A stretch of DNA of 64,000 nucleotides, taken from NCBI GenBank assembly GCA_039814545.1, contig JBCCBB010000004.1, positions 994-64,993 of the forward strand, given 5' to 3'. The DNA comes from Pseudomonadota bacterium. GTDB lineage: Bacteria > Pseudomonadota > Gammaproteobacteria > Steroidobacterales > Woeseiaceae. Under the pieces are notes generated by a model. The model did no database searches, had not been told where the DNA came from, and saw only the letters and a list, made by a program, of their open reading frames with translations. Shown here in pieces: positions 4,403-21,169 of this stretch. The first letter of the stretch is position 1. Every line of letters starts with the position of its first letter. A program made the position numbers and the translations under genes.

Positions 4403-4567
4403 TTACTTAGTCAGGATGAGCTTGCCATTGCGCGTCTTTCGCAGGCGGTATTCCTGCCCTTTGAAGTGAATCCGAACCTCCTGCTCTTCGCCAAACAACT
4501 GCTCGGCGAGAATGACTCTCGGCTGATTGCTGGCGGTCGGTTCGATCGCATCTAGCTTACTCCCCAT
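4403..4567 (-). CDS. hemP: Hemin uptake protein HemP/HmuP family (54 aa; below the ORF-track cutoff)
   Basis: Hand translation: MGSKLDAIEPTASNQPRVILAEQLFGEEQEVRIHFKGQEYRLRKTRNGKLILTK. The C-terminal pattern L-F-G-x-x-x-E-V-x-I-x-H-x-G-x-x-Y-R-L-R-x-T-x-x-G-K-L-I-L-T-K is the HemP signature as I recall it. A Fur box lies immediately upstream. Confidence 0.75.
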   Translation of the reverse strand: MGSKLDAIEPTASNQPRVILAEQLFGEEQEVRIHFKGQEYRLRKTRNGKLILTK

Positions 4568-4574
4568 GCAACTA

Positions 4575-4593
4575 AATGATAATGATTCTCATT
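4575..4593. promoter_or_regulatory. Fur box overlapping the hemP promoter
   Basis: AATGATAATGATTCTCATT compares well with the consensus GATAATGATAATCATTATC. On the minus strand a perfect -35 TTGACA (4598-4603) is followed 16 nt later by TATCAT. The Fur box covers the spacer and the -10. Confidence 0.65.
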
Positions 4594-4700
4594 TGAGTGT
4601 CAACCGGTGTTGACAGCGCTTGCGCGGATACGCGGGCGTAGGGACATTCAGTGATGCCTGGTGCTAGGAGCTCAAACGACCGGTTCGATACACTCACGCC

Positions 4701-5672
4701 ATGAACACCGTGCCTCTTGCCGTAGCGCCGATGATGGACTGGACGGATCGGCACTGCCGGTACTTTCACCGTCTTCTGGCGCCCTCAGCCGTGCTCTACA
4801 CGGAAATGGTGACCGCCGCCGCGCTCGTGCATGGCGACGCAGACCGGCTGCTCGCGTTCAACGCCGAGGAGCACCCGGTCGTGTCACAGGTGGGCGGCAG
4901 CGAGCCCGAGCTTATGCGCGAGGCTGCGATCATGGCCGAGCAGGCAGGCTACGATGCCGTGAACATCAACGTCGGTTGCCCCAGCGATCGCGTGCAGAAG
5001 GGTGCGTTTGGCGCTTGTCTCATGGCAGAGCCCGACACCGTGTCTCGGTGTTGGCTGGCCATGTCCGAGGCCGTCTCGATTCCCGTCACCGTGAAGTCGC
5101 GCATCGGCATTGATGATCGCGACGACGCCGCGTTTCTCGACGCGTTTGTGGACGCCGTGGCGGGCGCGGGCTGCACGCATTTCGACATTCATGCGCGCAT
5201 CGCTGTCCTTGCGGGTCTGAGCCCCAAGCAGAATCGCGAAGTGCCACCGCTCATTTACGACGCTGTGTACCGTCAGAAGCAGCGTCGACCCGATCTCACC
5301 GTCTTCATTAACGGCGGTATCGTTGATGCCGTTGCCGCAGCGACCCATCTTGAGCACGTTGATGGGGTCATGATCGGTCGCGCCGCCTACCAGGATCCCT
5401 GGTCGCTGACGGCGTTCGAGCAACTCGTCAATCCTGACTGCGCGCCACCGACGCGCGCTGCCGTGGTCCACGAGATGGCGGCGTACGTCGAGCGGGCGCT
5501 CGGGCAGGGTGCGTCGCTCAAGCACGTCACGCGGCACATGTTGGGCTTGTTCAACGGCTTGCCCGGCGCACGTGCCTGGCGACGCACGCTCAGCGAGCGC
5601 GCCCATCTTGACCGTGTCGGCCCGGAGCTGTTGATCGCAGCACTCGAGCCGCTCGAATCCGTGGCCGCCTGA
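4701..5672 (+). CDS. dusA: tRNA dihydrouridine(20/20a) synthase DusA
   Basis: The N-terminus APMMDWTDRHCRYFHRLL and NINVGCPSDRVQKG are typical of DusA. Length is 323 aa. Confidence 0.9.
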   Translation: MNTVPLAVAPMMDWTDRHCRYFHRLLAPSAVLYTEMVTAAALVHGDADRLLAFNAEEHPVVSQVGGSEPELMREAAIMAEQAGYDAVNINVGCPSDRVQKGAFGACLMAEPDTVSRCWLAMSEAVSIPVTVKSRIGIDDRDDAAFLDAFVDAVAGAGCTHFDIHARIAVLAGLSPKQNREVPPLIYDAVYRQKQRRPDLTVFINGGIVDAVAAATHLEHVDGVMIGRAAYQDPWSLTAFEQLVNPDCAPPTRAAVVHEMAAYVERALGQGASLKHVTRHMLGLFNGLPGARAWRRTLSERAHLDRVGPELLIAALEPLESVAA

Positions 5673-5774
5673 AGGCACTTGCTGGTCTCGTCCGGGGCCA
5701 CTCGATACAATCGCGCCCACGAAAGCCCCGGCCATGTGCCGTGTGGCTTCTTTTTGATTGCCGCAGGGGACGTC

Positions 5775-6596
5775 ATGGGCCGCGCCAAAAGAAAGGGCCA
5801 GGAACCAACGATGGCCGAGTCAGCCGACCGCCATGATTTGTATGAGGAATCGGTTCAGGACGTCGAAGTCGAGATTGACTTCCTCGATGCCACCTACGAG
5901 AAGCTGCGCGGTCGCAAAGCCAAGCGCTTTCGCGAGGATTTCTGTGGCACGGCAAGCGCCGCCTGCGAGTGGGTGCGACGCCGTCCCAGCAACGAAGCGA
6001 TTGGCGTGGATCTCGATCGCCCGACTCTCGACTGGGGCATCGACCACCGCGTGTCACGGCTGACCGCTGATGCGCAATTGCGCGTCAAACTCCTTCAGGA
6101 AGACGTCTGCACCGTCACGGCGTCGCCGGCGGATATCATCGGCGCCTTCAATTTCAGCTACAACATCTTCAAGACGCGCGACGCCCTGCGCGGCTACTTC
6201 GAAAATGCGCGGCGCGGTCTCGCTGACGACGGCGTGTTCTTCCTCGACGCGTTCGGCGGCTCCGAAGCCATCAGTGAAATGAAGGAGAAGACGAAGCTCG
6301 ACGGCTTTACCTACGTCTGGCACCAAGCCCGCTATCGACCCGTAACTGGCGAGATTCGTTGCCATATTCACTTTCACTTCCCCGATGGCTCGAAGTTAAA
6401 GAAGGCCTTCACCTACGACTGGCGATTGTGGACGCTGCCTGAGATTCGTGAGCTCTTGCTCGAGGCTGGCTTTCGCACCGTCACCGTCTATTGGGAGGGT
6501 GTTGACGAGGATGGTGAGGGGAACGGCGTCTACGAACCCGACCCGCACGGTGAGGCAGATCCGGCCTGGATTGCCTACATTGTGGCGGAGCGCTGA
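5775..6596 (+). CDS. Class I SAM-dependent methyltransferase
   Basis: The ORF opens at 5679, but the likely start is ATG 5775 (MGRAKRKG..). Motif-I-like FREDFCGTAS, with IIGAFNFSYNIF and GVFFLDAFGG further on. Confidence 0.65.
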   Translation: MGRAKRKGQEPTMAESADRHDLYEESVQDVEVEIDFLDATYEKLRGRKAKRFREDFCGTASAACEWVRRRPSNEAIGVDLDRPTLDWGIDHRVSRLTADAQLRVKLLQEDVCTVTASPADIIGAFNFSYNIFKTRDALRGYFENARRGLADDGVFFLDAFGGSEAISEMKEKTKLDGFTYVWHQARYRPVTGEIRCHIHFHFPDGSKLKKAFTYDWRLWTLPEIRELLLEAGFRTVTVYWEGVDEDGEGNGVYEPDPHGEADPAWIAYIVAER

Positions 6597-6710
6597 GCAT
6601 CGACGCGCATTGCCTCGACATTTCAATGCGTTGCGCGCTTATAATCGACGCCGTGAAGGTGCAGTGGTCACGGGGCCCGCGCCTGGTCTAGGGAGTAGGG
6701 GGCCGTCGCA

Positions 6711-7619
6711 GTGAGCGAGGAACTGGAAGTCGCCATTGTGTTTGCCGATGTTGTCGGCAGCACGCAACTGTACGAATCGCTGGGCGACGATCAGGCCCGC
6801 GCTGTCGTGCGCCAATGCCTGGACATCATGATCAGTGCCACCGATTCAGGTGGCGGTGAGGTCATTAAGACCATGGGGGATGAGGTCATGTCGATCTTCC
6901 CCGACTCGGACGCCGCCATTGGCGCGGCCGTCGAGATGCAGCAGCGCATCTCGGGCAGCAAGAATCTCGTACCCGACGGTCAAAGCATTTCGATTCGCAT
7001 CGGCTGCCACTACGGTGTCGTCGCGCGCGAACCCAACGATATATTCGGCGCGGCCGTGCACACGGCTAATCGCATGACATCGCAGGCCAAGGCCAGGCAG
7101 ATTGTCACGACAGGCGCCATGGTCGAGCGACTCGGGGATGCCTGGCGGAAGACCACACGCCAGATCGATCTGGCGGTCGTTAAAGGCAAGAAGGACGAGG
7201 TCGCGCTGTTCGAAGTGCTCTGGCAGCCCAACGAGGAAGCCACGAGTGTCGTTCAGACCATCGGATTTTCGTCAGCCGAGGAAACACAGCGCCTTACGTT
7301 GTCGTTCGCAGGCCGCAACATGGCTGTCGAGCCAGAGCGCCAGCAGATCACCATGGGGCGCGCCGAGGACAATGACCTCGTCATCAAGGGTAATCTGATC
7401 TCGCGCGTGCACGCGCGCATCGAGAAGCGCCGCAACAAGTACTTCCTCGTCGACGAGAGCACCAACGGCTCATTCGTCGTGACCATCGACGGCCAGGAGT
7501 CGTTCGTTCGTCGTGACAGCATGCAGCTGCAGGGCGAGGGCGTCATCGGCTTGGGCAAGGTCGCCAAGCCGGGCACCTCGCTGGCCGTGCACTACCTGCT
7601 CGAAGCCTCAGACGGCTGA
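6711..7619 (+). CDS. Class III adenylate/guanylate cyclase domain fused to a C-terminal FHA domain
   Basis: GTG start preceded by GGGAG/GGGGG. Cyclase motifs: IVFADVVGST, IKTMGDEVM, IFGAAVHTANRM. FHA motifs: ITMGRAEDNDLVI..ISRVHARIE..YFLVDESTNGSFV. Confidence 0.8.
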   Translation: MSEELEVAIVFADVVGSTQLYESLGDDQARAVVRQCLDIMISATDSGGGEVIKTMGDEVMSIFPDSDAAIGAAVEMQQRISGSKNLVPDGQSISIRIGCHYGVVAREPNDIFGAAVHTANRMTSQAKARQIVTTGAMVERLGDAWRKTTRQIDLAVVKGKKDEVALFEVLWQPNEEATSVVQTIGFSSAEETQRLTLSFAGRNMAVEPERQQITMGRAEDNDLVIKGNLISRVHARIEKRRNKYFLVDESTNGSFVVTIDGQESFVRRDSMQLQGEGVIGLGKVAKPGTSLAVHYLLEASDG

Positions 7620-7631
7620 CGCCTCGGCGGG

Positions 7632-9386
7632 TCAGCTCACCGCTTTCAACGCATCAAGAATCTTTAGCTGCGCCTCGCGCAGCCGATTGGGCACGCGTGC
7701 GCCGAAGGCATCGAGGTATTCACCGACGGCCGCAATCTCGGCGTCCCATCCGGCCCTATCGACATCCAGGAGTGTCTCGAGCGCACCCGGCGCCATCTCG
7801 AGATCTTGGGCATCGATGTCTGCGGCGTGCGGGAGGTGGCCGATCGCTGTGTCACGCGCCTCGAGCTGACCTTCGCAACGGCCGATGATCCAGCGCAGGA
7901 CGCGCAGGTTCTCGCCAAAGCCAGGCCAGAGGAATCGCCCCTCACTGTCCTGGCGGAACCAGTTGACGTGAAAGACGCGAGGCAACGCATCGGAGCGCTC
8001 GGCGAAGGACAACCAGTGCGCCCAGTAGTCGGCGAAGTTGTAGCCGCAAAAAGGCTTCATCGCCATCGGATCGCGGCGCACCACACCCACGGCGCCCGTG
8101 GCCGCAGCCGTCGTCTCAGACGCCACGCCCGCCGCCACCATGACGCCGTGGTGCCAATCCTTGGCCTCGAAGACGAGTGGCGCGAGCTGCTTGCGCCGCC
8201 CGCCAAATACAATGGCCGAGATGGGCACGCCGTCGGGCGCTTCGGCCAATTCGCTGTACACAGGGTTTGCCGTGGCGCGCACCGTGAAGCGTGCATTGGG
8301 ATGCGCCGCAGGTCCGTCGCCCGAATAAGGGTTGCCGCGCCAGTCAGTCGCCGGCGTGCCTTCGCCCTTGTCTTCCCACCAGGGGCAGTTGTCCTCGGTT
8401 AGGGCGACATTGGTGAAAATGGTGTCGCTGCGAATCGTGTCGAAGGCGTTCTTGTTGGTCTTCTCGTTCGTGCCCGGAACGACACCAAAGTAGCCCGCCT
8501 CGGGATTGATCGCGCGCAATTGGCCGGCATCGTCGAGGTGCAGCCAGGCGATGTCATCACCCAGCGTCCAGATCTTCCAGCCCGGCTGCGACGCCGGCGG
8601 TATCAGCATGGCCAGATTGGTCTTGCCGCAGGCAGACGGAAAGGCGCAGGCCAGGTAATGGGTGTCGCCCGCCGGGCTCTGCACGCCGACGATCAGCATG
8701 TGCTCCGCGAGCCAGCCTTCCTGGCGCGCCTGCCAGCTGGCAATACGCAGCGCGTGGCACTTCTTGCCGAGCAGCGCGTTGCCGCCGTAGCCCGAGCCGT
8801 AGCTCTTGATTTCGAGCGATTCGGGGAAGTGCATGATGAACCGCTGATCGGGGTCCAGCGTGCCGGTTGAGTGCAGACCCTTCACGTAGTCGCCGTCGCG
8901 CTCAATGCGCGCTAACGCGGCATCGCCCATCCGGGTCATGAGTTTCATGTTGACGACCACGTAGGGGCTGTCCGTGATCTCGACGCCGCAGCGGGCGTAG
9001 GGCGAATCGATCGGCCCCATGCAGTAGGGCACGACGTACATCGTTCGCCCTCGCATGGCGCCATCGAACAACGCGTCGATTTTGGCGTGCGCGGCCTCAG
9101 GTGCCATCCAGTTGTTGTTCGGACCGGCATCGTCTTCTTCGCTCGTGCAGACGAAGGTCAGGTGTTCGACGCGAGCCACATCGTCGGGGTCCGAACGGTG
9201 CAGGTAGCAGCCTGGGTATCGGTCCTGGTTCAGCGGTAGCAGGGTGCCGTCGTCGGTCATCTGGGCGACGAGCCGGTCGTATTCGGCGTCGCTGCCATCA
9301 CACCAGACAATGCGGTCAGGCTGGGTGCGCGCGGCAACTGCATCGACCCAGGTATTTAGGTCCTGCAATCGGCTGTGTTGGGGCAT
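7632..9386 (-). CDS. pckG: Phosphoenolpyruvate carboxykinase (GTP)
   Basis: The ORF opens at 9470, but the likely start is ATG 9386 (MPQHSRLQDLNTW). The GTP-PEPCK kinase-1a loop FPSACGKTNLAM is present, and the length (about 584 aa) and overall sequence fit the GTP type. Confidence 0.9.
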   Translation of the reverse strand: MPQHSRLQDLNTWVDAVAARTQPDRIVWCDGSDAEYDRLVAQMTDDGTLLPLNQDRYPGCYLHRSDPDDVARVEHLTFVCTSEEDDAGPNNNWMAPEAAHAKIDALFDGAMRGRTMYVVPYCMGPIDSPYARCGVEITDSPYVVVNMKLMTRMGDAALARIERDGDYVKGLHSTGTLDPDQRFIMHFPESLEIKSYGSGYGGNALLGKKCHALRIASWQARQEGWLAEHMLIVGVQSPAGDTHYLACAFPSACGKTNLAMLIPPASQPGWKIWTLGDDIAWLHLDDAGQLRAINPEAGYFGVVPGTNEKTNKNAFDTIRSDTIFTNVALTEDNCPWWEDKGEGTPATDWRGNPYSGDGPAAHPNARFTVRATANPVYSELAEAPDGVPISAIVFGGRRKQLAPLVFEAKDWHHGVMVAAGVASETTAAATGAVGVVRRDPMAMKPFCGYNFADYWAHWLSFAERSDALPRVFHVNWFRQDSEGRFLWPGFGENLRVLRWIIGRCEGQLEARDTAIGHLPHAADIDAQDLEMAPGALETLLDVDRAGWDAEIAAVGEYLDAFGARVPNRLREAQLKILDALKAVS

Positions 9387-9468
9387 GGTTTCGCGGTCTT
9401 TTGTCGGGGTCGCGATTATAGACCAGCGCCAATGCACGATGGTGATGTCAGCGCTGTCAATCGTAAGC

Positions 9469-9507
9469 AAAAAAAAACGCTGACACCCCGGGGGGGAGGT
9501 GTCAGCG
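9469..9507 (-). terminator. Rho-independent terminator of the phasin-like gene
   Basis: The minus strand reads GCTGACACC-TCCCCCCCGG-GGTGTCAGCG followed by T9. This is a 9-10 bp GC-rich stem plus a U-run, about 75 nt after the stop at 9583. Confidence 0.75.
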
Positions 9508-9527
9508 TCAGGTTGCGCTGGCCGTCA

Positions 9528-9539
9528 GGGGGGGGGGGG
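9528..9539. repeat. Homopolymeric G12 tract (C12 on the phasin mRNA 3'-UTR)
   Basis: Read directly: 12 consecutive G between the phasin stop and its terminator. A G7 run lies at about 9490-9496, inside the terminator loop. Confidence 0.9.
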
Positions 9540-9582
9540 AGAGATGGCCAGTGTTGGGTAACCTCAGGGGGAGAGGTTGAGA

Positions 9583-10146
9583 TCAGGCAGCCGTTACCGA
9601 CTCCGTGACCTCTACTACCTTTTTCGCAGCCGTCTTAGCGGCCGTTTTTGCTTTCGTTTTAGCTTTTTTTGCGGGAGCCTTGCGTGCGGTCTTTTTGGCA
9701 GCCGTTTTCGCACGCTTGGGTGCGGCGGGCTTGCCGATGCCGGACACAACGCCAGTGACGTCCGTCGCAGCGCTACGAACGAGGTCGAAGGCTTCGCGGA
9801 TGTCAGTGATGTAGCCGCGAACGACCTTCGGCATCGTGTCGCGCTGGTAGGCCAGCAGCGAACCAACCGATTCAGCGCGGGCAGCGGCGTCAAAGCCACC
9901 AGCCAGTGCGTCGAGGCTGCCCTGGACGCTCTTGGTCTGCAGCTCGATCAGGTCTTTCGACAGGCGGAAACCGATACCGTTGACGTCAATGCTGGCCTTG
10001 GAAAGCTTGGCGACGGGCTTCTTGCCCGTTGCGATGGCTTTGCCAGCCTGGCCAACGCGTTCCTGCGTGGCGTCAACAGCGGTGTTCATGGTTGTACGGG
10101 CCGAGTCGGCGACGCGCGTCAGCGCAGTTTCGATCTGTTCTTTCAC
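9583..10146 (-). CDS. Phasin-like (PHA granule-associated) protein with Lys/Ala-rich histone-H1-like C-terminal tail
   Basis: The ORF opens at 10191. The likely start is GTG 10146, preceded by GAGGG. The N-terminal region looks helical (VKEQIETALTRVADSARTT..LLAYQRDTMPKVV). The tail is KPAAPKRAKTAAKKTARKAPAKKAKTKAKTAAKTAAKK, as in PhaF/AlgP-type proteins. Confidence 0.55.
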   Translation of the reverse strand: MKEQIETALTRVADSARTTMNTAVDATQERVGQAGKAIATGKKPVAKLSKASIDVNGIGFRLSKDLIELQTKSVQGSLDALAGGFDAAARAESVGSLLAYQRDTMPKVVRGYITDIREAFDLVRSAATDVTGVVSGIGKPAAPKRAKTAAKKTARKAPAKKAKTKAKTAAKTAAKKVVEVTESVTAA

Positions 10147-10442
10147 GGTGAGAACCCTCAATGGTGCGGTGCAACAAATGTTGCAGCGCACAATATGGCA
10201 GCGTCATGGTGCTGTCAACCTTTTTTCGGTAAGTTTTCGTCTTGAGTTCGTCCGGCGCACGGCAGCGTCCCGGAATCCTTAAGCACTGCTTAGCCAGAAT
10301 GAGACCTGGTTCACACAGAGGTCGTGAATACGCTCACAGATTCGCGGTCGTAACACCCTGATCCATAGGCTTTAGCGTCCCGCTCAGGGACAATCTTATG
10401 GTGAAACCGGGGTGTGCCCGGAAATCGGGACGAAGCAGGCTT

Positions 10443-11447
10443 ATGACAATCAGAAACGGCGTGTGCGCGACAGGGACGAGGCGCTTTCTCGCCTCCATCA
10501 TTCTGGCCATGCTGTCAGCAGGGGCCGGTGCCGCCGGCACGCTGGCAGGCACAGACATCGCCAATACGGCCAGTGTCAGCTACGAGCTCGACGGCAACCC
10601 GGTCACCCAGGACTCGAACACGGTCACGATCAGTGTCGCCGAGATTCTCGACGTCACGGTGGTACTCGTCAGCCCGCAGCAGTCCGTGAGCCCCGGCGAT
10701 ACTGCGCAGGCACTCGTCTTTACGGTGACCAACACGGGCAACGGCCAGGAATCGTTCGGGCTCAGCGTTGACAATGCGCTGGCCGGTGACGATTTCGACC
10801 CCATCGCCGCGAGCCCCAACATCTATTTCGACAGTGACGCGAGCGGCGACTTCAGCGCGGCTGACACGCCTTACGTACCGGGCAGCGGTGACCCCGACCT
10901 CGCGCCAGACGCTGCGATCACACTCATCGTCGTCAACGACGTTCCCACGGGTCTCGCCAACGGTGACCGCGGCACCAGTGCATTGATCGCCGTCGCTGCC
11001 ACGGGCAGTGGTGCGCCAGGCACGTTGTTCGCCGGCGCCGGCGCCGGTGGGGTCGACGCCGTGGCCGGCGCGAGCGGCGCCACCGCGACCGCGACGGGCG
11101 AATACCTCGTTTCCGACGTCGCGCTCGTCCTCAACAAAGTCGCCCTGGTGCTGGACCCGTTCGGCGGTGATCAGCCCGTACCCGGCGCCACGATTCGCTA
11201 CACGGTCACGGCCGAAGTCACGGGAACCGGGACGGCCGTCGCGGTTGCCGTCGAAGATCAGATTCCGGCCAACACGAGCTATGTCCCAGGAAGCCTCGCG
11301 CTTAACGCGGCTGGCCTCAGCGATGCCGCCGATGCTGACGCGGGCGTGTACGAGGTGGCACCGACGCCGCTCGTGCGCGTGACGCTGGGCGACCTGGCTG
11401 CCGCCGACGGTGTGCAGACCATCACTTTTGAAGTACTCATCGACTGA
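10443..11447 (+). CDS. Secreted two-module DUF11-like (conserved-repeat, Ig-like) protein; putative fibre subunit A
   Basis: ATG 10443 (alternative ATG 10398). Signal peptide MTIRNGVCATGTRRFLASIILAMLSAGAGAAG. Module signatures: FTVTNTGNGQESF and PGATIRYTVTAEVTGTG..VEDQIPANTSYVPGS. It is a collinear paralogue of 12126-13235. Confidence 0.85.
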   Translation: MTIRNGVCATGTRRFLASIILAMLSAGAGAAGTLAGTDIANTASVSYELDGNPVTQDSNTVTISVAEILDVTVVLVSPQQSVSPGDTAQALVFTVTNTGNGQESFGLSVDNALAGDDFDPIAASPNIYFDSDASGDFSAADTPYVPGSGDPDLAPDAAITLIVVNDVPTGLANGDRGTSALIAVAATGSGAPGTLFAGAGAGGVDAVAGASGATATATGEYLVSDVALVLNKVALVLDPFGGDQPVPGATIRYTVTAEVTGTGTAVAVAVEDQIPANTSYVPGSLALNAAGLSDAADADAGVYEVAPTPLVRVTLGDLAAADGVQTITFEVLID

Positions 11448-11499
11448 CGCCACCAACGAAGTGGCGATGCAACTGACAGCATTTATTAAGGAGCGAAGC

Positions 11500-11985
11500 A
11501 TGAACCGAGCACTGACCCTACTGGCAGCCGTGCTCTCACTGAGCCTGGCGACACCCGCCCTGGCTCAGGAGGGCAAGATCGAACTCAAGAGCGTTGTTGA
11601 GAAAGAAGTACGTGTCGTCAATGATGCGGGCGAAGAGGTCGTGCAGCTCGTGACTGCCGACAAAGTCGTGCCCGGTGACGTGGTGATCTACACGGTCACC
11701 TACACGAATGTCGCCGAACAGGCCGTCGACAACGTCGTCATCACAAACCCCATCAACGATGCCTTGAGCTATGTCGTCGATTCCGCGTTTGCCCCGGGTG
11801 CCGACGTCAGCTTTTCCGTTGACGGTGGCGCCTCGTTCGACGCGCTCGAGGCACTGACTGTCGAACGCGAGGGCACCGCGATCGCCGCCGGTGTCGACGA
11901 TCTCACTCACATCCGCTGGATCCTGCGCGAGCCGCTAGATCCCGGTGCACAGGGCTTCGCCCGATTCCGCGCGCGCCTCAATTAG
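11500..11985 (+). CDS. Secreted single-module DUF11-like protein; putative fibre subunit B (cap candidate)
   Basis: ATG 11500 with AAGGAG 6 nt upstream; the track ORF opens at 11410. Signal peptide MNRALTLLAAVLSLSLATPALA. Module signature: VVPGDVVIYTVTYTNVAEQAVDNVVITNPINDALSYVVDS. Confidence 0.85.
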   Translation: MNRALTLLAAVLSLSLATPALAQEGKIELKSVVEKEVRVVNDAGEEVVQLVTADKVVPGDVVIYTVTYTNVAEQAVDNVVITNPINDALSYVVDSAFAPGADVSFSVDGGASFDALEALTVEREGTAIAAGVDDLTHIRWILREPLDPGAQGFARFRARLN

Positions 11986-12125
11986 GCGCCGCCAGATTCG
12001 CCCGGTAAGGGACCACCGGGCTCAACGATAACAGGGACTTCCAGGCCGCTGCGCAGGGCGGCTTGGCGCATCCGAGCGACCTGCGCATTGGCAAGAGCAA
12101 ATTAATGCAAGACAGGAGAAGCGAA

Positions 12126-13235
12126 ATGACGCTTGCACGCACAACCCTGGGCCGTATAGCGGCCTCGGGACTCGTAGCGATCGCGTTGTCGTTCGCGGGG
12201 ACGGCACAAGCTGCCGGCACCGCGGCCGGGACCTCGATCGAAAACGTGGCTACCGTCGACTACGAAGTCGGCTCGATCGCACAGACGCCGATCGAATCGT
12301 CTCCGACGGGTAACTCCACCCCAGGTGTCAGCAACGGCACGGCAACGGCGTTCCTCGTCGATAACCGTGTCGATCTGACGCTGGTGGAGACCGACAGCGC
12401 GCCCACCCCGGTCAGCCCGGGACAGGCCGATGTCGTGGCTACATTCAGCCTGACCAACACCGGTAACGAGGCACAGGGCTACGCACTGGTCGCAGCCAAC
12501 CTCGCAGCCGGCGCCGTCGTTCACGGCAACACCGATGATCAGCAGGTCAACAACCTGCGGGCCTTCGCCGACACCGACGGCAGTGGCGACTTCTCGGGCG
12601 GTGACGCCCAGTTCGTCGACACGCTCGCGGCTGACGGCAACATCCTCGTGTTCGTCGTTGCTGACGTGCCGATCGGTGTCGTTAATGGTGAGTTCGCCAA
12701 CGTCAGCATGACCGCAACGACTGCGGTTTCGGGCACGAGCGGCGCGACGATTGTCACGGAAACCACGGGCGGCAACACCGCCGGTGTTGACGTCGTGTTT
12801 GCCGATGCTGGCAATGATGGTCTCGAGACGGCCGAAGACGGCTTTGCCGTATCGTCGGCTGCCCTCACTGTGACCAAGGCGGATGCGATCATCAGTGATC
12901 CGATCAACGGCACTACGGACCCGCTGTACATTCCGGGTGCGGTCGTTGAGTACACGATCACGATCGTGAACACGGGTACCGCCGACGCCGAACAGGTCAG
13001 CGTTACGGACGTCATCGATGGCGACCTGACCCTGGCTCTGGGCGAATACGGCGGCGGCGCCGATATCGAGTTTGACCTCGGTGGCGCCACAACGGGCTGC
13101 ACGGCGAACAACGCCGACGCGGACCCCTGTGGCCTCACGGGTTCGACGCTCGAAGCCGACGTGAATGCGACGCTGGGTACCAACCCGGGTGTCGACGACA
13201 CGCTGGTGGTGCGTTTCCGCGTGACCATCAACTGA
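12126..13235 (+). CDS. Secreted two-module DUF11-like protein; putative fibre subunit C (paralogue of A)
   Basis: ATG 12126 with AGGAG 8 nt upstream; the track ORF opens at 12063. Signal peptide MTLARTTLGRIAASGLVAIALSFAGTAQA. Module signatures: FSLTNTGNEAQGY and PGAVVEYTITIVNTGTADAEQVSVTDVI. One Cys pair (CTANNADADPC) is present. Confidence 0.85.
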   Translation: MTLARTTLGRIAASGLVAIALSFAGTAQAAGTAAGTSIENVATVDYEVGSIAQTPIESSPTGNSTPGVSNGTATAFLVDNRVDLTLVETDSAPTPVSPGQADVVATFSLTNTGNEAQGYALVAANLAAGAVVHGNTDDQQVNNLRAFADTDGSGDFSGGDAQFVDTLAADGNILVFVVADVPIGVVNGEFANVSMTATTAVSGTSGATIVTETTGGNTAGVDVVFADAGNDGLETAEDGFAVSSAALTVTKADAIISDPINGTTDPLYIPGAVVEYTITIVNTGTADAEQVSVTDVIDGDLTLALGEYGGGADIEFDLGGATTGCTANNADADPCGLTGSTLEADVNATLGTNPGVDDTLVVRFRVTIN

Positions 13236-13261
13236 CGGTAGTTGCGGAGACGCTGACGCCC

Positions 13262-16200
13262 ATGAGCGAGCGCATCGCTGCTCTTGCACTGCGCGCCGTG
13301 GCCGGGAAACCGGCCGCGGCGCGCGGGCGTTTGTGTGTCCGCCGCCGTCGTGCCGTGCGAGTGGCTCCGGGGTACGTTCGACGTGCCCCGGCGCTTCTTC
13401 GCAGTGCGGTGTTGGTGCTGGCCGGTGTCTTCGGCTTTGCACTGACCGCTGTCGCGGCGACGCCACCCGGTACCCAGATCGACAACCAGGCACGGGCGCT
13501 GTTCCAGACCGACGCGGGCACGCCCGTCACGGTGCTCAGCAATACGGCCAGTGTGATCACCGTTTTTGGTCGCACGCCTTCGCAGGCGACCTTCACACGA
13601 CTCGCTGCGGGCACCGTGAGCCGCAGCGAAACCATCGGTCCCGTGCAGTGTGCACTCAACGGGACGTTTACTCCCTTGCCTGCACCACTTGACGGCGCGG
13701 GCCAGCCGATCGACCTGACCGCCCCGCAAACCGTGGCGGACACGGGCATCTTCAACACCGACGAGACCGCGTTTGTGCGTCTCGATGACGGTGACCAAAA
13801 CCTCAATGGGCTCTTGCGTGAGACGGTGACCGTGACCGTCAGCAACGCCCCGGGCGGTGACAGCGAGACGCTGACGCTGACCGAAACGGGCAATAACACG
13901 GGTGTGTTCACGGGTTACGTACCACTTGCCGAGGCGACGCCTTCAGCGGGCAACTGCGTACTTGAGACGACGCCCGACAGTACGCTGTCCATCAGCTACG
14001 CCGACCCGGCGGACAACACGGACGCGAGCCAGGCGCTGGCGCTTGTGGAGCCGCTTTCGATCGTGTTCGACGCCAGCACGGGCCAGCCTGTCGACGGCGC
14101 GACGATCACGCTTGTCGATGCGGCCACGGGGCAGCCCGCGACCGTGTTCGGCAACGACGGCGTTAGCACGTACCCGGCGACGGTAGTCAGCGGCGCACCC
14201 GCGACCGATGCTGCCGGTGTGGTCTACAACGTGCCGGCTGGCGGCTACCGCTTCCCGGTCCTGCCCGCGGGCGACTACCGCCTGCAGATCGTGCCGCCGG
14301 CGCAGTTCATCGCACCGTCCAACCGGAGTGTTGCCGAACTCAACACGTTGCCGGGTGCGCCGTTCGATCTGGCAACGGCTTCATTCGGCGGTGACTTCAC
14401 GCAAGTCGTCGATGGCGCGGGCGATCTCGTTGACGTCCCGCTCGATCCCTTTGACGGCGGCCTGTTCCTGTCCAAACGCACCACGACGGCCGTAGCCGGC
14501 GTGGGCGACTTCGTTCGCTACGAACTCGGTCTGACCAACGCATCAGAACGTGTCGCTGCGACGGGCATCACCGTCAGTGATGTGCCGCCGCAGGGCTTCC
14601 GCTATGTGGCTGGTTCGGCGCGGCTCAATGGCAACGTCATTTCCGATCCCGTCTTCGCTGATGCGACGGGTAGTTCGTTCACGTTTACCTTGCCCGATCT
14701 GCCCGCGGCAGCATCGGCAACGCTGGCTTACGTCATGGAAATTACGCCGGGTGCTCGAGGGCGTCAGGCTATCAACATCGCTTCTGCGCGCGCGGACCGT
14801 GGCGTTGCCTCTAACGAAGCGCAGGTATCGATTCGCCTGCGTGAAGACCTGTTCCGGAGCACGAGTGTGCTCGTCGGCCGCGTGGTGGAGGGCAACTGCA
14901 CCGACGAGACGTTTACCGAGTCGCAGGGTGTTGCCGGCGTGCGCGTCTTCCTCGAGGACGGTCGATTCGCGGTCACCGATTACGGCGGTCGTTACCATCT
15001 CGAAGGTCTGACGCCGGGCCGACGTGTGGCGCAGCTCGACGACACCACCGTGCCGGAATGGTTAGAGCTGGTCCCCTGCGACGCGGCACCGCGCTTCGGC
15101 GGTCGGGCGGACTCGCAATTGGTTGACCTGAAACCGGGTCTGTTGCATCGGGCCGACTTCTACCTCAAGCGGCGCGCACCGGATACGGGTGCGGTTTCGC
15201 TTGAGCTCGTCAACGAGAGCGGCAACTCGCCCGACACGATCGATTACAAGCTCGAGCTAACCGGTGACGGCAATGTCTCGGTCGAAGGTCTGAGTGCCAC
15301 GGTGCTGCTGCCCAAGTCGGCCTCGCTTGTACCCGGCACGGCGCGCCTCAACGGCCAACTGCTGCCGAGCCCGCGCCAGACAGGCAATGCCGTCGTGTTC
15401 GTGATTGGCGAGCGTGCGGGCGGCTGGCGCGACCGCATTACGTTCTCGGCCAGGATCGATGCCCTCTACGCCGGTGAGCTCGTGAGCCGCGCTGTGGCCA
15501 ACTTCAATACGCCCGCGACAGGCAACCAACGTACGCCAGTTGGCGAGGCGAGGATGCTACGCGAGGCGGCCACGACAGAAAACGCGGAGTACGTGCTGTC
15601 GCTGAACTTCGACGTGTTGTCTGCTGAGTTGTCCGCCAATGACCGCGAGACGCTGGACGCGCTCATCGATACCTGGCGCGGCGTCTATGACATCCGCCTC
15701 GCAGCGGTGGGGCACTCGGACGCTGATCGTATTGCCGCTCGCAACAGACACGTGTTTGCGGACAACTACGCTCTGTCCGAGGCGCGCGCTGCGTCTGCCG
15801 CACGCTACCTGGCCAGCGCACTCAATGTCGATTCGAAGGCAATCGAGGTGCGTGGCTTCGGCCCCGACCGTCCTGTGGCCAGCAACGATACGGCCGACGG
15901 CAAGCGCCGCAACCGGCGCGTGGAACTCGTCATGAGCGGCACGCGACCCGGTCGTCAGTCGGTCGTCGAGGTCACGCAGGCCGCCAGCGGCGTGCAGCGG
16001 GTCGACACAACGGGCGCCACGCCGGGCCCTGAGACGGCATCGCGAAACGCGCTCGACGAAAAAATTGCGCGCGTGACGGCGGCGAGTGACGAAGCCGTGA
16101 TGGTTGCAGCGCCGGGCGTCGAGGCATTGGGCAGCGCGCATGGCTTTGTCGCACCAGCCGCCGACTACCAGCCGCCGATTCCCAGCTTGACCGTCGCAGT

Positions 16201-19200
16201 GGCGCACGCCGGTGACAGCCGCGTCGAGCTGTCGCTCAACGGGGCGCCCGTCAGCAACCTTAACTTCGATGGCACCGAGCGCAGCGCCGACAAACAGCAT
16301 GCGCTGAGCAGCTGGCGCGGTGTCGACCTTGCCGATGGCGACAACACGCTGATTGCGACCGTGGTGGATGCCAACGGCGTGGTGTTGGCCACGCACCGAC
16401 GTGCCGTGCATTACGCCGGACAGCCCATTCGCGGTGAGCTCGTCGCCAAGGAATCCCGACTTACTGCCAACGGCCGCCAGCGGCCCGTGATCGGTGTACG
16501 TCTGCTCGACGCGGATGGCCAGCCGGCGCGTGCGGGCTCGATCGGCAGCTTCCGCGTTCGTGCCCCGTACCGCTCTTGGTTCGAGGTGTCGCGGGAGCGC
16601 GAGAACCGGCTTGTTGAGGTCGGCGACCGCCGGCCGCTCTACCGCGTTGGCGAAGACGGCATCGCCTACCTGGAGCTCGAGCCCACGACGCGCGCGGGTG
16701 AAGTGATTGTTGATCTTGAATTCGAGAACGGTCGCCAGCAGGAATTGCGCACCTACCTTGCGCCGGCGCCACGCGACTGGATTCTGGTCGGCTTTGCCGA
16801 GGGCACCGTTGGCTACAACACGCTGCGCGATAACGTTAACGCGGCAGACGCTGCCGGTTTCGAGGACGATGTCTACACGGACGGCCGCGTGGCGTTCTTC
16901 GCCAAGGGCCGGATCAAGGGTGACGCGCTGCTGACGCTGGCCTACGACACCCGCGGCAATGCCGTGGACCGCGATGGTTTCGGCACCGAGGTCGATCCGG
17001 ACGCCTTCTTTACGCTCTACGGTGATGGCACCGAGACGCGCTTTGAGGCGGCCAGCCAGCGCAAGCTTTACATCAAGCTCGAGCGCCAACAGTTCTCCGC
17101 CCTGTTCGGTGACTTCGACACGGGGCTGTCGGTCACGGAGCTTGCCCGCTATGAGCGCCGCTTTAACGGGCTGCAGGTGCAGTACTTCGGCAATCGTTTC
17201 ACCGTTAACGCCTTTGCGGCCGAGAGCGATCAGTCATTCCAGCGCGACGACATCCCCGGCGACGGCACCTCGGGTCTGTACCGGCTCTCCGGTCAGGACA
17301 TTGTCGTCAACTCTGACGCCGTGCGTATCGAGACGCGTGACCGCTTCGACGCGTCGGTCGTGATCGCGAGCGAGCGCCTGACGCGTTTCCTCGATTACGA
17401 CATCGACTACATCAACGGCACCTTGTTCTTCAAGCGGCCTGTGCCGAGCCGTGACCAGGACTTCAACCCGCTGGTCATCGTCGCAGAGTACGAATCGCGC
17501 GATGCGGCGGAAGACGACACGATTGCGGGTGGCCGTGCCTCGATCAAGGCGCTCGACGGCGCGCTTGAAGTCGGTGTCACGGCGGTCCACGAAAACAATG
17601 CCGTGGACGCCAACGCGCTCTACGGCGTCGATCTCGCCTGGCAAATCGACAACGCGACGCGACTCACGGCCGAGTACGCCGACACCGACCGCAATGACGT
17701 CAGCGCCACGACCTCTGGCTACGCCTACAAGATCGAGCTTGAGCGCGCGACGGGCTCCCTCGATGCGCGGCTTCACCACCGCCTGTCGGACTCGAATTTC
17801 GGGCTGGGTGCGCAAGCCGCGAACCAGCTCGGTATTGAGGCGACCGGTCTGGATGTGCGCTGGCAGCACGCCGAGCGCTGGTTCAGCCAGATGTCGCTGG
17901 GCCACCAGGAGAACCTGGATACGGGCGCTGAGCGCCAGCGCGCCGAAGCCGAAGTGCGCTACCAGGATTCACGCAACACGGCGTTTACGGGGCTCGCCTT
18001 TGTCAGCGACGAGGCGGCCGATGGCACGGAGCGCGAGTCGTCTCTGGCGCGCGCTGGTGTTGGACGCAGCTTCTTCGGTGACCGCATCACGCTGCGCCTG
18101 TCGACGGAGCAGGCCATCGACACCGATGAGAGCATCGACTACCCGTCGCGTACGCTCGTAGGACTCGACTGGAAGCTGGCGCAGGCCACGCTGTTTGCTG
18201 AGCACGAGGTGGCGAGCGGGGAGAGTATTGATGCGCAAACCTCTCGCGTCGGTCTGCGTGCGACGCCCTGGCAGCGCGCCCAGTTCCTGACCACGCTCGA
18301 CAACCAGGTCACCGAGTTTGGCCCGCGTTTGTTCGCCAACATCGGCTTTATCCAGGGCATACAGATTGGTGAGCGCTGGACCCTCGACGTCGGTGTCGAC
18401 CACAGCAACACGATTATCGACGAGCAGAGTGCGCAGGTCTTTGATCCCGATCGCGAGCTCGTATCAGGCAGCCTGCGCGCCGACTTCGTCGCGGCATTCG
18501 CGGGAGCGCTATACCAGTCTGATAACTGGTCGGCCAATGCGCGCTACGAACGCCGGTCGGCCGATGACGAGGACCGCGACACAGTGTTGTTTGGCTGGTT
18601 CCGTGAGCCCGTCGCAGGTCACGGCCTGTCGGCAGGCTTGCAATACTTCAACAGCGACCGCGCTGACCGCGGCGAGCGACGCGCGGACCTGCGGTTTGGC
18701 TGGGCGTATCGCAAGGCCGATCGCCGCTGGGCGTTCCTCGACCGGCTGGATCTCGTGCTCGATGAGGGCGACGGTTTGGGCGGCGAGCGCCGCAGCATGC
18801 GCTTCATCAACAACTTTAACGCGGTGCGCCGCATCGGCGCGGCCGGTGAGCTGTCGTTGCAGTACGCGTTCAAGTACGTCGACAGTGAGTTCGATGGTGT
18901 CGGCTACTCGGGCTACACCGACCTGGCCGGCGTCGACTATCGCCGCAGCTTCCGCGCGCGCTGGGACTGGGGCATACACGGCTCGGCGATGACGTCGTAC
19001 GAGTCGGGTGTGACGGACTATGGCGTAGGTGTCGATGTTGGGTTCAACCCCCGCGACAACCTCTGGCTGACGCTCGGCTACAACTTCTCTGGCTTCCGCG
19101 ACGAGGACTTCGACGACGCACGCTACACGGCGGCGGGTCCCTATCTGCGTGTCACGGTAAAAGCTGATCAGCACACGCTTAACCGCATCACGGGCAGGAT

Positions 19201-19216
19201 TCGCGGCGACCGCTAA
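13262..19216 (+). CDS. Giant (1984 aa) multidomain outer-membrane protein: Ig-like/Cna-B-like/DUF11-like modules, internal OmpA-like domain, very large C-terminal beta-rich (barrel-like) region
   Basis: Alternative GTG starts at 13355 and 13361. Signal-like segment [22 protein letters not shown]. Cna-B/CarboxypepD_reg-like: [20 protein letters not shown] and [25 protein letters not shown]. DUF11-like: [27 protein letters not shown]. OmpA-like: [21 protein letters not shown] (nt ~15587-15940). Invasin-Big-like: [24 protein letters not shown]. About 820 aa of amphipathic strand-like sequence follows, from nt ~16760. Confidence 0.85.
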   Translation: [1984 protein letters not shown]

Positions 19217-19243
19217 CGCCCGGGGCGCGGTATAGTGCGCGCC

Positions 19244-21169
19244 ATGACCGACCTCGACGACCTGCTGGCCAGTGATGGCGCCGTCGCGCGCGCCATTCCC
19301 GGCTATCAGCCGCGCCTGTCGCAGCGTCTTATGGCCGAAGCCGTCGATGTGGCCATGGCCAGCCGGGAACACCTCGTGGTCGAGGCGGGCACCGGCACGG
19401 GCAAGACGTTCGCCTACCTATTGCCCGCGCTCGTCGCCGGGCGTCGCACCATCATCTCCACAGGCACTCGCGCGCTGCAGGACCAGCTTTTTCACCGCGA
19501 CCTGCCCATGATCGCTGCGGCCGTCGGCCGACCCGTGAAGACGGCCTTGCTCAAGGGGCGCGCGAACTATCTGTGCCTGCACCGGCTCGACCAAGCCCTG
19601 ACGGATGCGGCGGCGCTGACCGGAAAGGAAGCGCGGGTTCTTTCCGAGTGGCGTGACATGACCCGGCGCGGCGACCGTGCTGAGGTAACGCAAATTCCCG
19701 AGGACGCGTCGGTGTGGCCGCGGGTGACCTCAACGGCCGACAATTGTCTTGGCCAGAAGTGCGCGTTCTACGAGGACTGCTACGTCGCACAGGCGCGTCG
19801 CGATGCGCAACGCGCTGACCTCGTGGTTGTTAACCACCACCTGTTACTGGCCGACCTGGCGTTTCGCGAGACGGGCTTTGTTGAGTTTCTGCCTGACGCC
19901 GACGCCGTGATTATTGATGAGGCGCACCAGTTGCCCGACACGGCGCTGCAGTTTTTTGGCGTCAGTCTGTCCACGCGGCAGTGCATCGATCTGTTTGATG
20001 AGCTCGAGGTCGACACGGCAGGGATTGGCGGGCCGCCGCTCGACGAGGCTATGCGGCGCGCCCGTAAGGCAGTGCTCGACTTGCGCGAGCAGGCGCCGGC
20101 CGACAGTGGCCGCTACGAGTTGGCCAACCTCGCCGGTGCCATCACGGCGCCGTTGTCCGAGTTCTCGGCGGCGCTCTCTGCGCTTCTGGAAGTGCTCGAC
20201 GGCATCGGTGTCGATGCGTCTGATGCGCTCGTGGATCGCGTGGTCAGGCTTGTGGACCGCCTTGGCATCATCGTCAACGACGACGACCTCGATGGTCTGC
20301 GCTGGGTCGAAGTGTCGCGCCGCAGCGTGCGTCTCAACATGACACCGCTCGACGTATCCGTGCGACTGCGCGCTGCCATGGACGCCACGGAGACGGCCTG
20401 GGTGTTCACCTCGGCAACACTCGCGGTCGGCGAGGACTTCTCGCACTTTACGAATCGCGTCGGGGTTGATGACGCGCGATGCCTGCGATTCGAATCGCCC
20501 TTCGATCTGGCGCGCAATGCGCGCGTGCTCGTGCCGCGCGATTTGCCGGCGCCCAACGAGCGCGGCTTCATGGGGACCTTGCTCGAAAGGACCGCACCAT
20601 TGCTCGCCGCGACAGCCGGCGGTGCGTTCTTCTTGCACACAAGCTATCGCGCGTTGGCTGAAAGCGCGGCGTGGTTCTCGTCGCGACCGGCCGTGCTCGG
20701 CGATCGGGCGTTGTACGTGCAGGGCGATGCCCCGCGCGACAAGTTATTGCAGGCGTTTCGTGCGGAGGGCAACGCCGTGTTGCTGGGCACGGGAACCTTT
20801 TGGGAAGGCGTTGACGTGCGCGGCCCGGCCCTGACGCTCGTGGTCATCGACAAGCTGCCCTTCGCGGCGCCTGATGACCCGATGCTCGTGGCACGCAGTG
20901 CCTGGTTGCGTGCCAACGGCCGTAACCCGTTTCGCGACTACCAGTTGCCGCAGGCGGTACTCGCGCTCAAGCAGGGCGTGGGGCGGCTGCTTCGGGACAC
21001 GGCCGACTACGGTGTGGTCGTGCTCGGAGATCAGCGACTGCACGGCAAGTCCTACGGACGCCTGTTTCTCGATGCGGTTCAGCCCATGCCAGTCGTCGAT
21101 GACCTGGCCGCGGCCGAGGCGTTTCTTGCGGCGCGCGAAGGTGCGGACAGCGAACGCGTGGCGTCGTAA
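19244..21169 (+). CDS. yoaA: ATP-dependent DNA helicase, DinG/Rad3 family, YoaA-like
   Basis: I chose ATG 19244 (MTDLDDLLASDGAVARAIPGYQPR..) because it mirrors the E. coli YoaA N-terminus; the track start is GTG 19235. Walker A is EAGTGTGKTFAYLLP, the DEAH box is IIDEAHQL, and the Fe-S cysteines are CLH..CLGQKCAFYEDC. Confidence 0.85.
   Translation: MTDLDDLLASDGAVARAIPGYQPRLSQRLMAEAVDVAMASREHLVVEAGTGTGKTFAYLLPALVAGRRTIISTGTRALQDQLFHRDLPMIAAAVGRPVKTALLKGRANYLCLHRLDQALTDAAALTGKEARVLSEWRDMTRRGDRAEVTQIPEDASVWPRVTSTADNCLGQKCAFYEDCYVAQARRDAQRADLVVVNHHLLLADLAFRETGFVEFLPDADAVIIDEAHQLPDTALQFFGVSLSTRQCIDLFDELEVDTAGIGGPPLDEAMRRARKAVLDLREQAPADSGRYELANLAGAITAPLSEFSAALSALLEVLDGIGVDASDALVDRVVRLVDRLGIIVNDDDLDGLRWVEVSRRSVRLNMTPLDVSVRLRAAMDATETAWVFTSATLAVGEDFSHFTNRVGVDDARCLRFESPFDLARNARVLVPRDLPAPNERGFMGTLLERTAPLLAATAGGAFFLHTSYRALAESAAWFSSRPAVLGDRALYVQGDAPRDKLLQAFRAEGNAVLLGTGTFWEGVDVRGPALTLVVIDKLPFAAPDDPMLVARSAWLRANGRNPFRDYQLPQAVLALKQGVGRLLRDTADYGVVVLGDQRLHGKSYGRLFLDAVQPMPVVDDLAAAEAFLAAREGADSERVAS

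Follow-up and report, generated by a model that had tools for sequence, protein, structure and literature searches.

Split CLIPPER (DUF11) domains in a four-gene operon of the Woeseiaceae: a possible donor-strand fibre with a built-in covalent lock

Introduction

The domain family DUF11 (PF01345, TIGR01451) has been renamed CLIPPER, and its crystal structure shows an intramolecular isopeptide bond (PDB 9IFR; Costa et al. 2025, PMC12617251). The bond runs from a lysine on the first strand to an asparagine on the penultimate strand, with an aspartate as the catalytic residue (Lys715, Asn806 and Asp748, respectively, in 9IFR). The unit has nine strands and closes with a terminal hairpin. DUF7507, DUF7619 and DUF7927 are placed in the same predicted isopeptide group; some CLIPPER domains lack the bond, and in those the triad positions are not universally conserved (PMC12617251). 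Discontinuous domains of the CnaA type are also known, for example GBS104-like_Ig (PMC12617251). Here we describe an operon of four genes, called A, B, C and the giant gene, which lies on a stretch of 64,000 nucleotides (64 kb, "the window") of contig JBCCBB010000004.1, assembly GCA_039814545.1, from a member of the Woeseiaceae. The operon proteins belong to the same family as 9IFR and carry the same Lys, Asp and Asn motifs and the same nine-strand unit with terminal hairpin, but A, B and C are cut in the loop between strands seven and eight (beta7-beta8), and the hairpin with the asparagine is found at the N-terminus of A, C and the giant protein. The CLIPPER bond is intramolecular, whereas here it would join two chains if formed in trans.

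The anatomy of the four proteins, its conservation, the split of the triad and the architecture of the operon are seen directly in the sequences. Judged from these, a fibre in which split CLIPPER domains complement each other in trans by donor strands, with a covalent lock like that of SpyTag/SpyCatcher and with neither chaperone nor sortase, is somewhat probable. A wider proposal is offered tentatively, with a chance that we put a little under even: the operon may encode a natural Gram-negative pilus of the SpyTag/SpyCatcher type, with the giant protein as terminator, double anchor and possibly pore, and with adhesins clipped covalently onto the tip. Such a pilus would form a new class in the Woeseiaceae and Steroidobacteraceae.

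Protein features

Proteins A, B and C end with ...TITFEVLID, ...FARFRARLN and ...LVVRFRVTIN, respectively, so that their final domains stop on the seventh strand of the DUF11/CLIPPER domain. Each of the 58 homologues of A that were compared (55-65% identity overall) ends with ...QTIxFxVxID, and all members of the A, B and C families end within a few residues of one common strand. Along the 114 positions of the Pfam DUF11 profile, A covers 12-72, B 4-53 and C 15-56; an internal domain of the giant protein covers 4-113. The scores with TIGR01451 are 39.7 bits for A, 27.7 for B, 31.4 for C and 43.7 for the giant protein (cut-off 24). With PF01345 they are 25.2 bits for C, 24.6 for B and 45.6 for the giant protein, while A scores 22.2 at full length and 25.0 when domain 2 is taken alone (cut-off 24.6). 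DUF7507, DUF7619 and DUF7927 are the other weak matches of these proteins. The nine-strand sandwich within a single chain, which serves as the criterion of a CLIPPER domain, is absent from A, B and C; only the internal copy of the giant protein is complete by profile.

The displaced element is a hairpin of two strands and about 35 residues, which corresponds to beta8-beta9 of the nine-strand CLIPPER fold. When the whole window is translated in six frames (127,996 positions), its motif, GTxIxNxA, is found at exactly three places, where 0.03 would be expected from composition. Each copy is located 5-6 residues downstream of a predicted AxA signal-peptidase site, one apiece in A, C and the giant protein. 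In the A family this segment is the most conserved part of the protein, with G2, T7, I9, N11 and A13 invariant among the 58 homologues, and the sequence of the A hairpin is almost invariant across the related loci. The motif is also kept in the C and giant families (about 70-80 loci); the consensus of the giant hairpin is PG(T/A)xIxNxA...SNxV (71 sequences). One hairpin type stands before unrelated domain types, those of A and C on the one hand and that of the giant protein on the other.

The AlphaFold model of mature A, computed from the alignment of 58 sequences, has a predicted local distance difference test score (pLDDT) of 94.4. It contains the hairpin (residues 8-19 and 22-34), domain 1 (37-193) and domain 2 (198-303), the latter terminating on a strand. 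Domain 1 has its strands within residues 37-193 and a weak match to NF041740. The invariant stretch FDxDxSGDxxxxD at positions 10827-10865 (mature A 99-111) and the equivalent stretch of C resemble a calcium-binding loop. Some donor-strand polymerisations, such as that of the archaeal cannulae, are calcium-driven.

Rejoining the two chain ends restores the family profile. With the N-terminal 36 residues of A placed behind A domain 2, the DUF11 coverage grows from 12-73 to 12-111 of 114 positions and the score from 25.0 to 29.9 bits, and the DUF7619 score grows from 14.9 to 22.3 bits. A shuffled peptide gave no gain (24.5 bits for DUF11 and 14.5 bits for DUF7619). The DUF7619 gain is 7-11 bits for the C domain joined with its own hairpin (23.4 to 30.2 bits) or with that of A, and for B joined with the hairpin of A.

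When 1.8 billion representatives were searched with the A profile, giant tandem-CLIPPER adhesins were among the matches. The joined ends of A, ...TITFEVLID followed by AGTLAGTDIANTASV, match the contiguous sequence ...VTFSVTIDDPTNSGTTITNTANV of one of them, P0242, without a gap across the junction; in a longer rendering, ...QTITFEVLID followed by AGTLAGTDIANTASVSYELDG is aligned to ...VTVTFSVTIDDPTNSGTTITNTANVNHK-DG within one 146-residue repeat of P0242. Joining the termini raises the alignment score from 116 to 162, and the spacing from the end of the seventh strand to the GT is 5 residues in both joined A and P0242. The best PDB match for a profile of 24 joined A sequences is the isopeptide-bonded pilin BcpA (3rkp/3kpt), at a non-significant E-value of 0.17, in an alignment that crosses the artificial junction. 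PDB searches with the single sequences of A, B, C and the joined A junction returned nothing useful. A Foldseek search with the A model returned only generic tandem immunoglobulin (Ig) proteins (integrin legs, complement, SafDAA) at a template modelling (TM) score of about 0.25, which is uninformative on the docking of the hairpin.

The isopeptide triad is divided in the same way as the fold. In A, the lysine K202 (VLNKVA) and the aspartate D242 (AVEDQIP) belong to domain 2, and the asparagine N11 (DIANTAS) belongs to the N-terminal hairpin. For A and C alike, Lys and Asp belong to the acceptor domain; the Asn is carried by the hairpins of A, C and the giant protein. The catalytic residue was taken as the Asp of the LxD motif; the conserved Asp of 9IFR counts one residue past Asp748 if Lys715 is residue 10 of the chain. 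In the related loci, A has kept the Asn in 80 of 81 sequences, the Lys in 79 of 81 and the Asp in 81 of 81. For C these positions are conserved in 76/76, 75/75 and 74/74 sequences, respectively, and the Asn of the giant hairpin is found in 67 of 71. When the comparison is widened to 245 relatives, the full set of Asn, Lys and Asp is retained by 224.

A first-pass annotation of the window had described the subunits as DUF11 repeats cut out of register, with mature N-termini of A, C and the giant protein that share a strand-like motif. The N- and C-terminal sequences that it quoted are all present as written, and the cut out of register is borne out by the profile coverage and by the gap-free junction with P0242. 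The proposal that a single final strand had been relocated to these N-termini stands as far as the relocation is concerned; by the AlphaFold model and the alignment, the relocated element has two strands. An alignment to DUF11 had been suggested as the way to identify the missing part; the DUF11 coverage is restored to 111 of 114 positions by the N-terminal hairpin, which corresponds to beta8-beta9. The motif GTxIxNxAxV had been read as a strand; that its Asn is the isopeptide residue of the family had been overlooked.

Proposed assembly

If the fibre forms in trans, Sec export and cleavage at AxA would expose the beta8-beta9 hairpin on A, C and the giant protein and leave the last CLIPPER domain of A, B and C open past beta7. 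The hairpin of one chain would fill the open domain of the next and recreate a tandem-CLIPPER stalk with a chain break in the beta7-beta8 loop, similar to the stalk of ordinary fibrillar adhesins. An inter-chain bond is predicted because the acceptor bears the Lys and the catalytic Asp and the donor bears the Asn; completion of the domain would probably trigger this Lys-Asn isopeptide autocatalytically, with the Asp as catalyst, and yield a covalent polymer without sortase or chaperone. The polarity would follow chaperone-usher logic, with the acceptor-only B or large adhesins at the distal end and the donor-only giant protein at the proximal end as terminator and anchor. B would act as a distal cap or as a non-covalent holder of free donor hairpins, and the large adhesin-like proteins of related loci that carry an acceptor module would be tips. 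We infer the insertion in trans, the formation of the bond, the order and stoichiometry of the subunits and the route of export.

Three proteins of the operon are donors (A, C and the giant protein) and three are acceptors (A, B and C). In all loci examined, no incomplete domain could be detected in the giant protein, which has a donor, and B has an acceptor domain and lacks a donor hairpin. The first-pass annotation had derived a cap and an anchor from this bookkeeping, which holds in every locus. Its anchor, a donor strand fused to a barrel, agrees with the giant protein being donor-only and with the OmpA domain and predicted barrel of about 30 strands described below. For B, the acceptor module without a donor is as expected of a distal cap, but its triad is degenerate: Lys13 is present in 62 of 78 sequences, and the catalytic position is Asn in 69 of 78 and Asp in 7 of 78. 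B may therefore be a non-covalent cap, or else a chaperone-like decoy or reversible holder of free hairpins, rather than a simple cap. The motifs FSVDGG and THIRW are strongly conserved in B, absent from A domain 2, and found again in the C-terminal modules of accessory orphan acceptors; B and these modules may therefore form an acceptor subtype of their own.

Two such accessory proteins were found in related loci. In locus L087, a 2145-amino-acid adhesin-like protein (3533-9970) directly upstream of A has a truncated CLIPPER acceptor end (...THIKIAPKG...FELRFKVKVK). In locus L084, a 605-amino-acid protein (17783-19600) that follows the giant gene also has an acceptor end, together with a weak match to DUF3344. 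Both have Lys and Asp intact and lack a donor, and by their sequences both are candidate tip adhesins with a pilin-type acceptor module. These extra orphan acceptors are hard to explain without complementation in trans.

Behind its hairpin the giant protein continues with Ig-like domains that show CarboxypepD_reg-like, CLIPPER, SdrD_B-like and DUF7507-like matches. In the complete internal CLIPPER domain the whole Lys/Asp/Asn triad belongs to a single chain, and the domain aligns to PDB 9IFR around the Lys and the Asp. The sequence matches of the OmpA-like domain in the PDB include 6jfw (5e-11). An AlphaFold model of the last 1024 residues (alignment of 46 sequences, pLDDT 77.7) consists of Ig-like sandwiches, a disordered stretch, a small beta domain and about 30 long antiparallel strands. 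The first Foldseek match of this barrel is the 30-strand barrel of Deinococcus SlpA (8ae1; E 1e-7, TM 0.22), followed by SprA, LptD, TonB-dependent transporters, PapC and MtrB. Anchoring of the giant protein to both the outer membrane and the peptidoglycan is well supported by its predicted domains and the modelled barrel. A, B and C may also be exported through this barrel.

An assignment of the giant protein as an usher homologue was rejected: no PF00577 match was obtained, the modelled barrel comprises about 30 strands, and in Foldseek PapC comes no higher than 22nd (TM 0.17/0.31). The homologues of the giant protein (P0121-P0240) are of two forms, one of about 2000 amino acids with the OmpA domain and one of about 1650-1750 amino acids without it.

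Alternative readings

Several observations weigh against a covalent fibre assembled in trans. The model of the A monomer is confident including the N-terminal tail, with one residue below pLDDT 70, which probably means that the model docks the hairpin onto its own chain. Geometrically, side-by-side closure of A domain 2 in cis is conceivable; the docked tail may reflect either a genuine closed state or the self-complementation that is usual when a donor-strand subunit is modelled alone. The PDB match across the joined junction is statistically weak (E 0.17), and 17 of 245 relatives lack the donor Asn. B has no conserved Lys/Asp pair, and therefore at least one junction would be non-covalent. 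The terminator-like element of the operon follows C, not A, and there is no sign of A alone as the major polymerising subunit. For an export route across the outer membrane, the similarity of the giant barrel is to large barrels of a generic kind only (TM about 0.2-0.3), and an OmpA domain between stalk and barrel makes an awkward topology.

The alternative that survives best, although we hold it to be unlikely, is closure in cis. A and C would then be circularly permuted two-domain monomers, in which the protein's own hairpin completes its own C-terminal CLIPPER domain with an intramolecular Lys-Asn bond, and at most the giant hairpin and B would pair in trans. The A model, confident at both the N-terminal tail and the C-terminus (pLDDT 94.4), is as expected if the chain ends meet; the short linkers that flank domain 1 would permit side-by-side packing, and the discontinuous CnaA-type domains of the GBS104-like_Ig kind are a precedent (PMC12617251). 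However, AlphaFold monomers of donor-strand subunits commonly self-complement artificially, as in the "closed" model of TafA (PMC11821415). Closure in cis also needs a separate explanation for the orphan donor of the giant protein and for the orphan acceptors, namely B and the 605- and 2145-amino-acid proteins.

Further evidence on this point comes from diverged relatives. The donor Asn has become Ser, Thr or Tyr in 17 A-like proteins (P0262, P0273, P0285, P0302 and 13 others), and the acceptor Lys and Asp are retained in 17/17, which is expected if another chain serves the acceptor and speaks against closure in cis. In the loci of three Asn-less A proteins (L082, L084 and L086) the donor Asn of C is kept in all three, and that of the giant protein is kept in L084 and L086; L082 ends before the giant gene. 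A natural fusion of 1335 amino acids, P0255 (L088, 98-4105), has a donor hairpin, a domain 1 and about 800 residues of Ig-like and Fn3-associated domains, and then an internal hairpin contiguous with the preceding domain, a further domain 1 and an open domain 2. Its donor and acceptor are about 1000 residues apart, which again does not suit closure in cis. The occurrence of one hairpin type ahead of unrelated domain types, in A and C and in the giant protein, points towards trans as well. Overall, the indirect evidence favours complementation in trans over closure in cis.

Complementation in trans could also be non-covalent, with Lys, Asp and Asn as structural residues inherited from a CLIPPER ancestor and no isopeptide formed; we regard this as distinctly unlikely. 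It would allow B to accept a hairpin without a conserved triad, it would accommodate the Ser, Thr or Tyr at the donor position of 17 of 245 relatives, and bond-free CLIPPER domains do exist (PMC12617251). Yet the triad is 97-100% conserved in A and C and the giant Asn is kept in 67 of 71 sequences, whereas the triad is not universal in bond-free DUF11 domains (PMC12617251), and the complete CLIPPER domain of the giant protein bears the triad as well.

That there is no complementation at all, the hairpin being integral to the domain that follows it, the C-terminal domains being seven-stranded Ig variants and the four proteins being separate envelope components, e.g. an SlpA-like tether from the outer membrane to the peptidoglycan with accessories, is very improbable: partial Pfam matches are common for DUF11, and the barrel with a peptidoglycan-binding domain does repeat the outline of Deinococcus SlpA, but the joined termini align gap-free and in exact register to a contiguous CLIPPER repeat, the hairpin adds 5-11 bits to profile scores where a shuffled peptide adds none, the identical hairpin type stands ahead of different domain types and is continuous with the preceding domain in the fusion P0255, and the triad is divided between the two chain ends.

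Locus properties

The genes A, B, C and giant are co-directional on the forward strand of the window (Table 1). Sec-type signal peptides that end with AxA are predicted in all four proteins; the cleavage sites are conserved and are without a lipobox Cys. The longest open reading frame (ORF) of the giant gene starts with the ATG at 13262 (1984 amino acids) and passes through the stem-loop. The GTG at 13361 is the likelier start because it yields a normal signal peptide of 32 residues.

Table 1. Features of the operon, in positions of the window
Feature	Position	Strand	Description
Gene A	10443..11447	+	334-amino-acid precursor: signal peptide, donor hairpin, domain 1, acceptor domain 2
A mature N-terminus	from 10533	+	AGTLAGTDIANTASVSYEL
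A donor hairpin	10533..10640	+	Mature residues 1-36, strands 8-19 and 22-34; Asn11 codon 10563-10565
A domain 1	10641..11111	+	Ig-like; motifs TNTGNG and FDxDxSGDxxxxD; own final strands, appears complete
A acceptor domain 2	11112..11444	+	CLIPPER truncated past strand seven; Lys202 codon 11136-11138, Asp242 codon 11256-11258
Gene B	11500..11985	+	161-amino-acid precursor, mature from 11566; single CLIPPER-like truncated domain, acceptor-only
B mature N-terminus	from 11566	+	QEGKIELKSVVEKEV
Gene C	12105..13235	+	376-amino-acid precursor; paralogue of A
C mature N-terminus	from 12213	+	AGTAAGTSIENVATVDYEV
C donor hairpin	starts 12213	+	Asn codon 12243-12245
C acceptor domain	12843..13232	+	Lys codon 12876-12878, Asp codon 13008-13010
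Stem-loop	13289..13326	+	GC-rich, terminator- or attenuator-like; 17 pairs, fold z = -5.4; between C and the probable giant start
Giant gene	13361..19216	+	Signal peptide, donor hairpin, Ig-like stalk, OmpA domain, very large beta-barrel
Giant mature N-terminus	from 13457	+	ATPPGTQIDNQARALFQT
Giant donor hairpin	13457..13564	+	ATPPGTQIDNQARALFQTDAGTPVTVLSNTASVITV; Asn codon 13484-13486
Giant complete internal CLIPPER domain	14468..14830	+	DUF11 45.6 bits, profile 4-113/114
Giant OmpA-like peptidoglycan-binding domain	15608..15916	+	Residues 783-885; PF00691 44.8 bits (cut-off 27.2)
Giant C-terminal outer-membrane beta-barrel (predicted)	17468..19159	+	About 30 strands

A sequence search found 1760 homologues of A. 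In the survey of loci, 205 species-level genomes matched, and 80 of them were taken for comparison. Near-identical loci (96-97% protein identity) are found in metagenome-assembled genomes (MAGs) of uncultured Gammaproteobacteria, and more distant copies of the operon in the Woeseiaceae, the Steroidobacteraceae and relatives, all of them MAGs of uncultured organisms. The gene order A-B-C-giant is kept in 80 of 80 loci as far as the contigs reach.

Downstream of C, a terminator-like hairpin recurs. Among the related loci listed (L001-L046), most have a strong hairpin within 200 nucleotides past C, which differs in sequence and is often followed by a run of T. Because this element recurs between C and the giant gene, A-B-C is probably transcribed apart from, or in excess of, the giant gene. 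Such an excess fits several small subunits per anchor and does not single out A as the major subunit.

Judged by eye from their translations, the flanking ORFs resemble phosphoenolpyruvate (PEP) carboxykinase, a phasin-like protein, a DinG-type helicase and TsaB. No chaperone, usher-family, sortase or secretion-system gene is apparent among these ORFs when their translations are inspected by eye, without a family scan, and Pfam and NCBIfam scans of the four operon proteins gave no match to a chaperone family. The PEP carboxykinase gene is of the GTP (guanosine triphosphate) type and is located just upstream of the operon on the reverse strand (7632-9470); it has the same neighbourhood in the distant variant loci L082 (7988-9766) and L083 (2688-4466). 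An ORF of 202 amino acids (9583-10191, reverse strand), divergent from A, has a C-terminal tail rich in Ala, Lys and Pro and looks phasin- or histone-H1-like.

Implications

In the literature searched, neither this operon nor a split CLIPPER domain was found to be described. For a link between DUF11 and donor strands, the same literature gave only false matches of the DUF1102 type and one unrelated mention. Donor-strand fibres as a kind are already known; within that literature, it is the domain family and the possible chemistry that appear to be unreported for this purpose.

If the covalent assembly in trans is true, it would be, within the literature searched, the first example from nature in which a stabilising intramolecular isopeptide domain is split between chains to make a polymer. 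It would join two separate fields, donor-strand pili and isopeptide-bonded adhesin stalks, and would provide for fibre assembly in a diderm without a chaperone, an usher-family protein or a sortase. With at least three donor and three acceptor types per operon, it would also imply a built-in specificity of pairing, and protein engineering would gain new, orthogonal "tag/catcher" pairs of natural origin. Even if only the closure in cis is true, the proteins would represent a circularly permuted isopeptide domain, which is unusual.

Members of the Woeseiaceae are abundant in marine sediments. Because the gene order is conserved across at least 80 species-level genomes, the operon may encode a major attachment structure of these sediments.

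Comparison with known systems

The chaperone-usher pili (type 1, P, Csu) share with the arrangement proposed here an Ig fold that lacks its last strand or strands, an N-terminal donor extension, an acceptor-only tip, a donor-only terminator and a large outer-membrane barrel encoded in the operon. They differ in the PapD-like chaperone and the PF00577 usher (24-strand barrel with plug): family scans of the four operon proteins gave neither, and the flanking ORFs, judged by eye, do not resemble them. In this operon the proposed donor is a hairpin, the subunits have two domains, and a predicted barrel of about 30 strands is fused to an anchor that bears OmpA. The two systems are not homologous. 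The analogy of an incomplete Ig domain with an N-terminal donor is drawn at the sequence level, and a covalent lock is a possible further feature of the present proteins. The type V pili of the Bacteroidota (FimA/Mfa1) have a lipoprotein precursor, a strand removed by a protease and a C-terminal donor, in contrast to the AxA sites and the N-terminal donor found here.

The fibres of TasA/TapA, the archaeal bundling pili, the cannulae and the Tat-fimbriae are assembled by donor strands without a chaperone (PMC10151520, 10.1101/2024.12.30.630787, PMC11821415). TapA, TafC and TafF are accessory initiator or anchor subunits, analogous to the anchor proposed here. The folds of these systems are unrelated to CLIPPER, and they have neither a split triad nor an outer-membrane barrel as anchor. 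The sortase pili (BcpA, SpaA) are built from CnaA/CnaB pilins with Lys-Asn bonds and are covalent polymers, as proposed here. Their inter-subunit bond, however, is made by a sortase at LPXTG, whereas in the present proteins the bond within the domain would itself become the link. A, B and C end on their last beta-strand without a sorting signal, and the operon and its flanks contain no sortase-like ORF.

For the anchor, the best structural comparison is SlpA of Deinococcus radiodurans (8ae1), which also combines an outer-membrane barrel of 30 strands with a peptidoglycan-binding module. Where the giant protein has its OmpA domain and Ig stalk, SlpA carries an SLH domain and a coiled coil, and it lacks a donor hairpin. 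The structural match is low (TM 0.22), and no sequence relationship between SlpA and the giant protein was detected.

In the SpyTag/SpyCatcher pair, as in the split described here, one partner carries the lysine and a catalytic acid, the other carries the strand with the reactive Asn or Asp, and docking of that strand, by completing the fold, would set off the bond. That pair was engineered from CnaB2 of a Gram-positive adhesin, whereas the present split would be a natural, CnaA-like one that serves polymerisation in a Gram-negative bacterium. The archaeal threads of Sulfolobus acidocaldarius are chaperone-free donor-strand fibres of Sec-cleaved subunits for which inter-subunit isopeptides have been proposed (PMC9715654). 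In the threads the bond runs from the N-terminal amine to Asn57 of subunit n+2; there is no triad, the fold is another one and there is no outer membrane. By analogy, the SpyTag/SpyCatcher pair and the archaeal thread appear to be the nearest functional counterparts of the operon.

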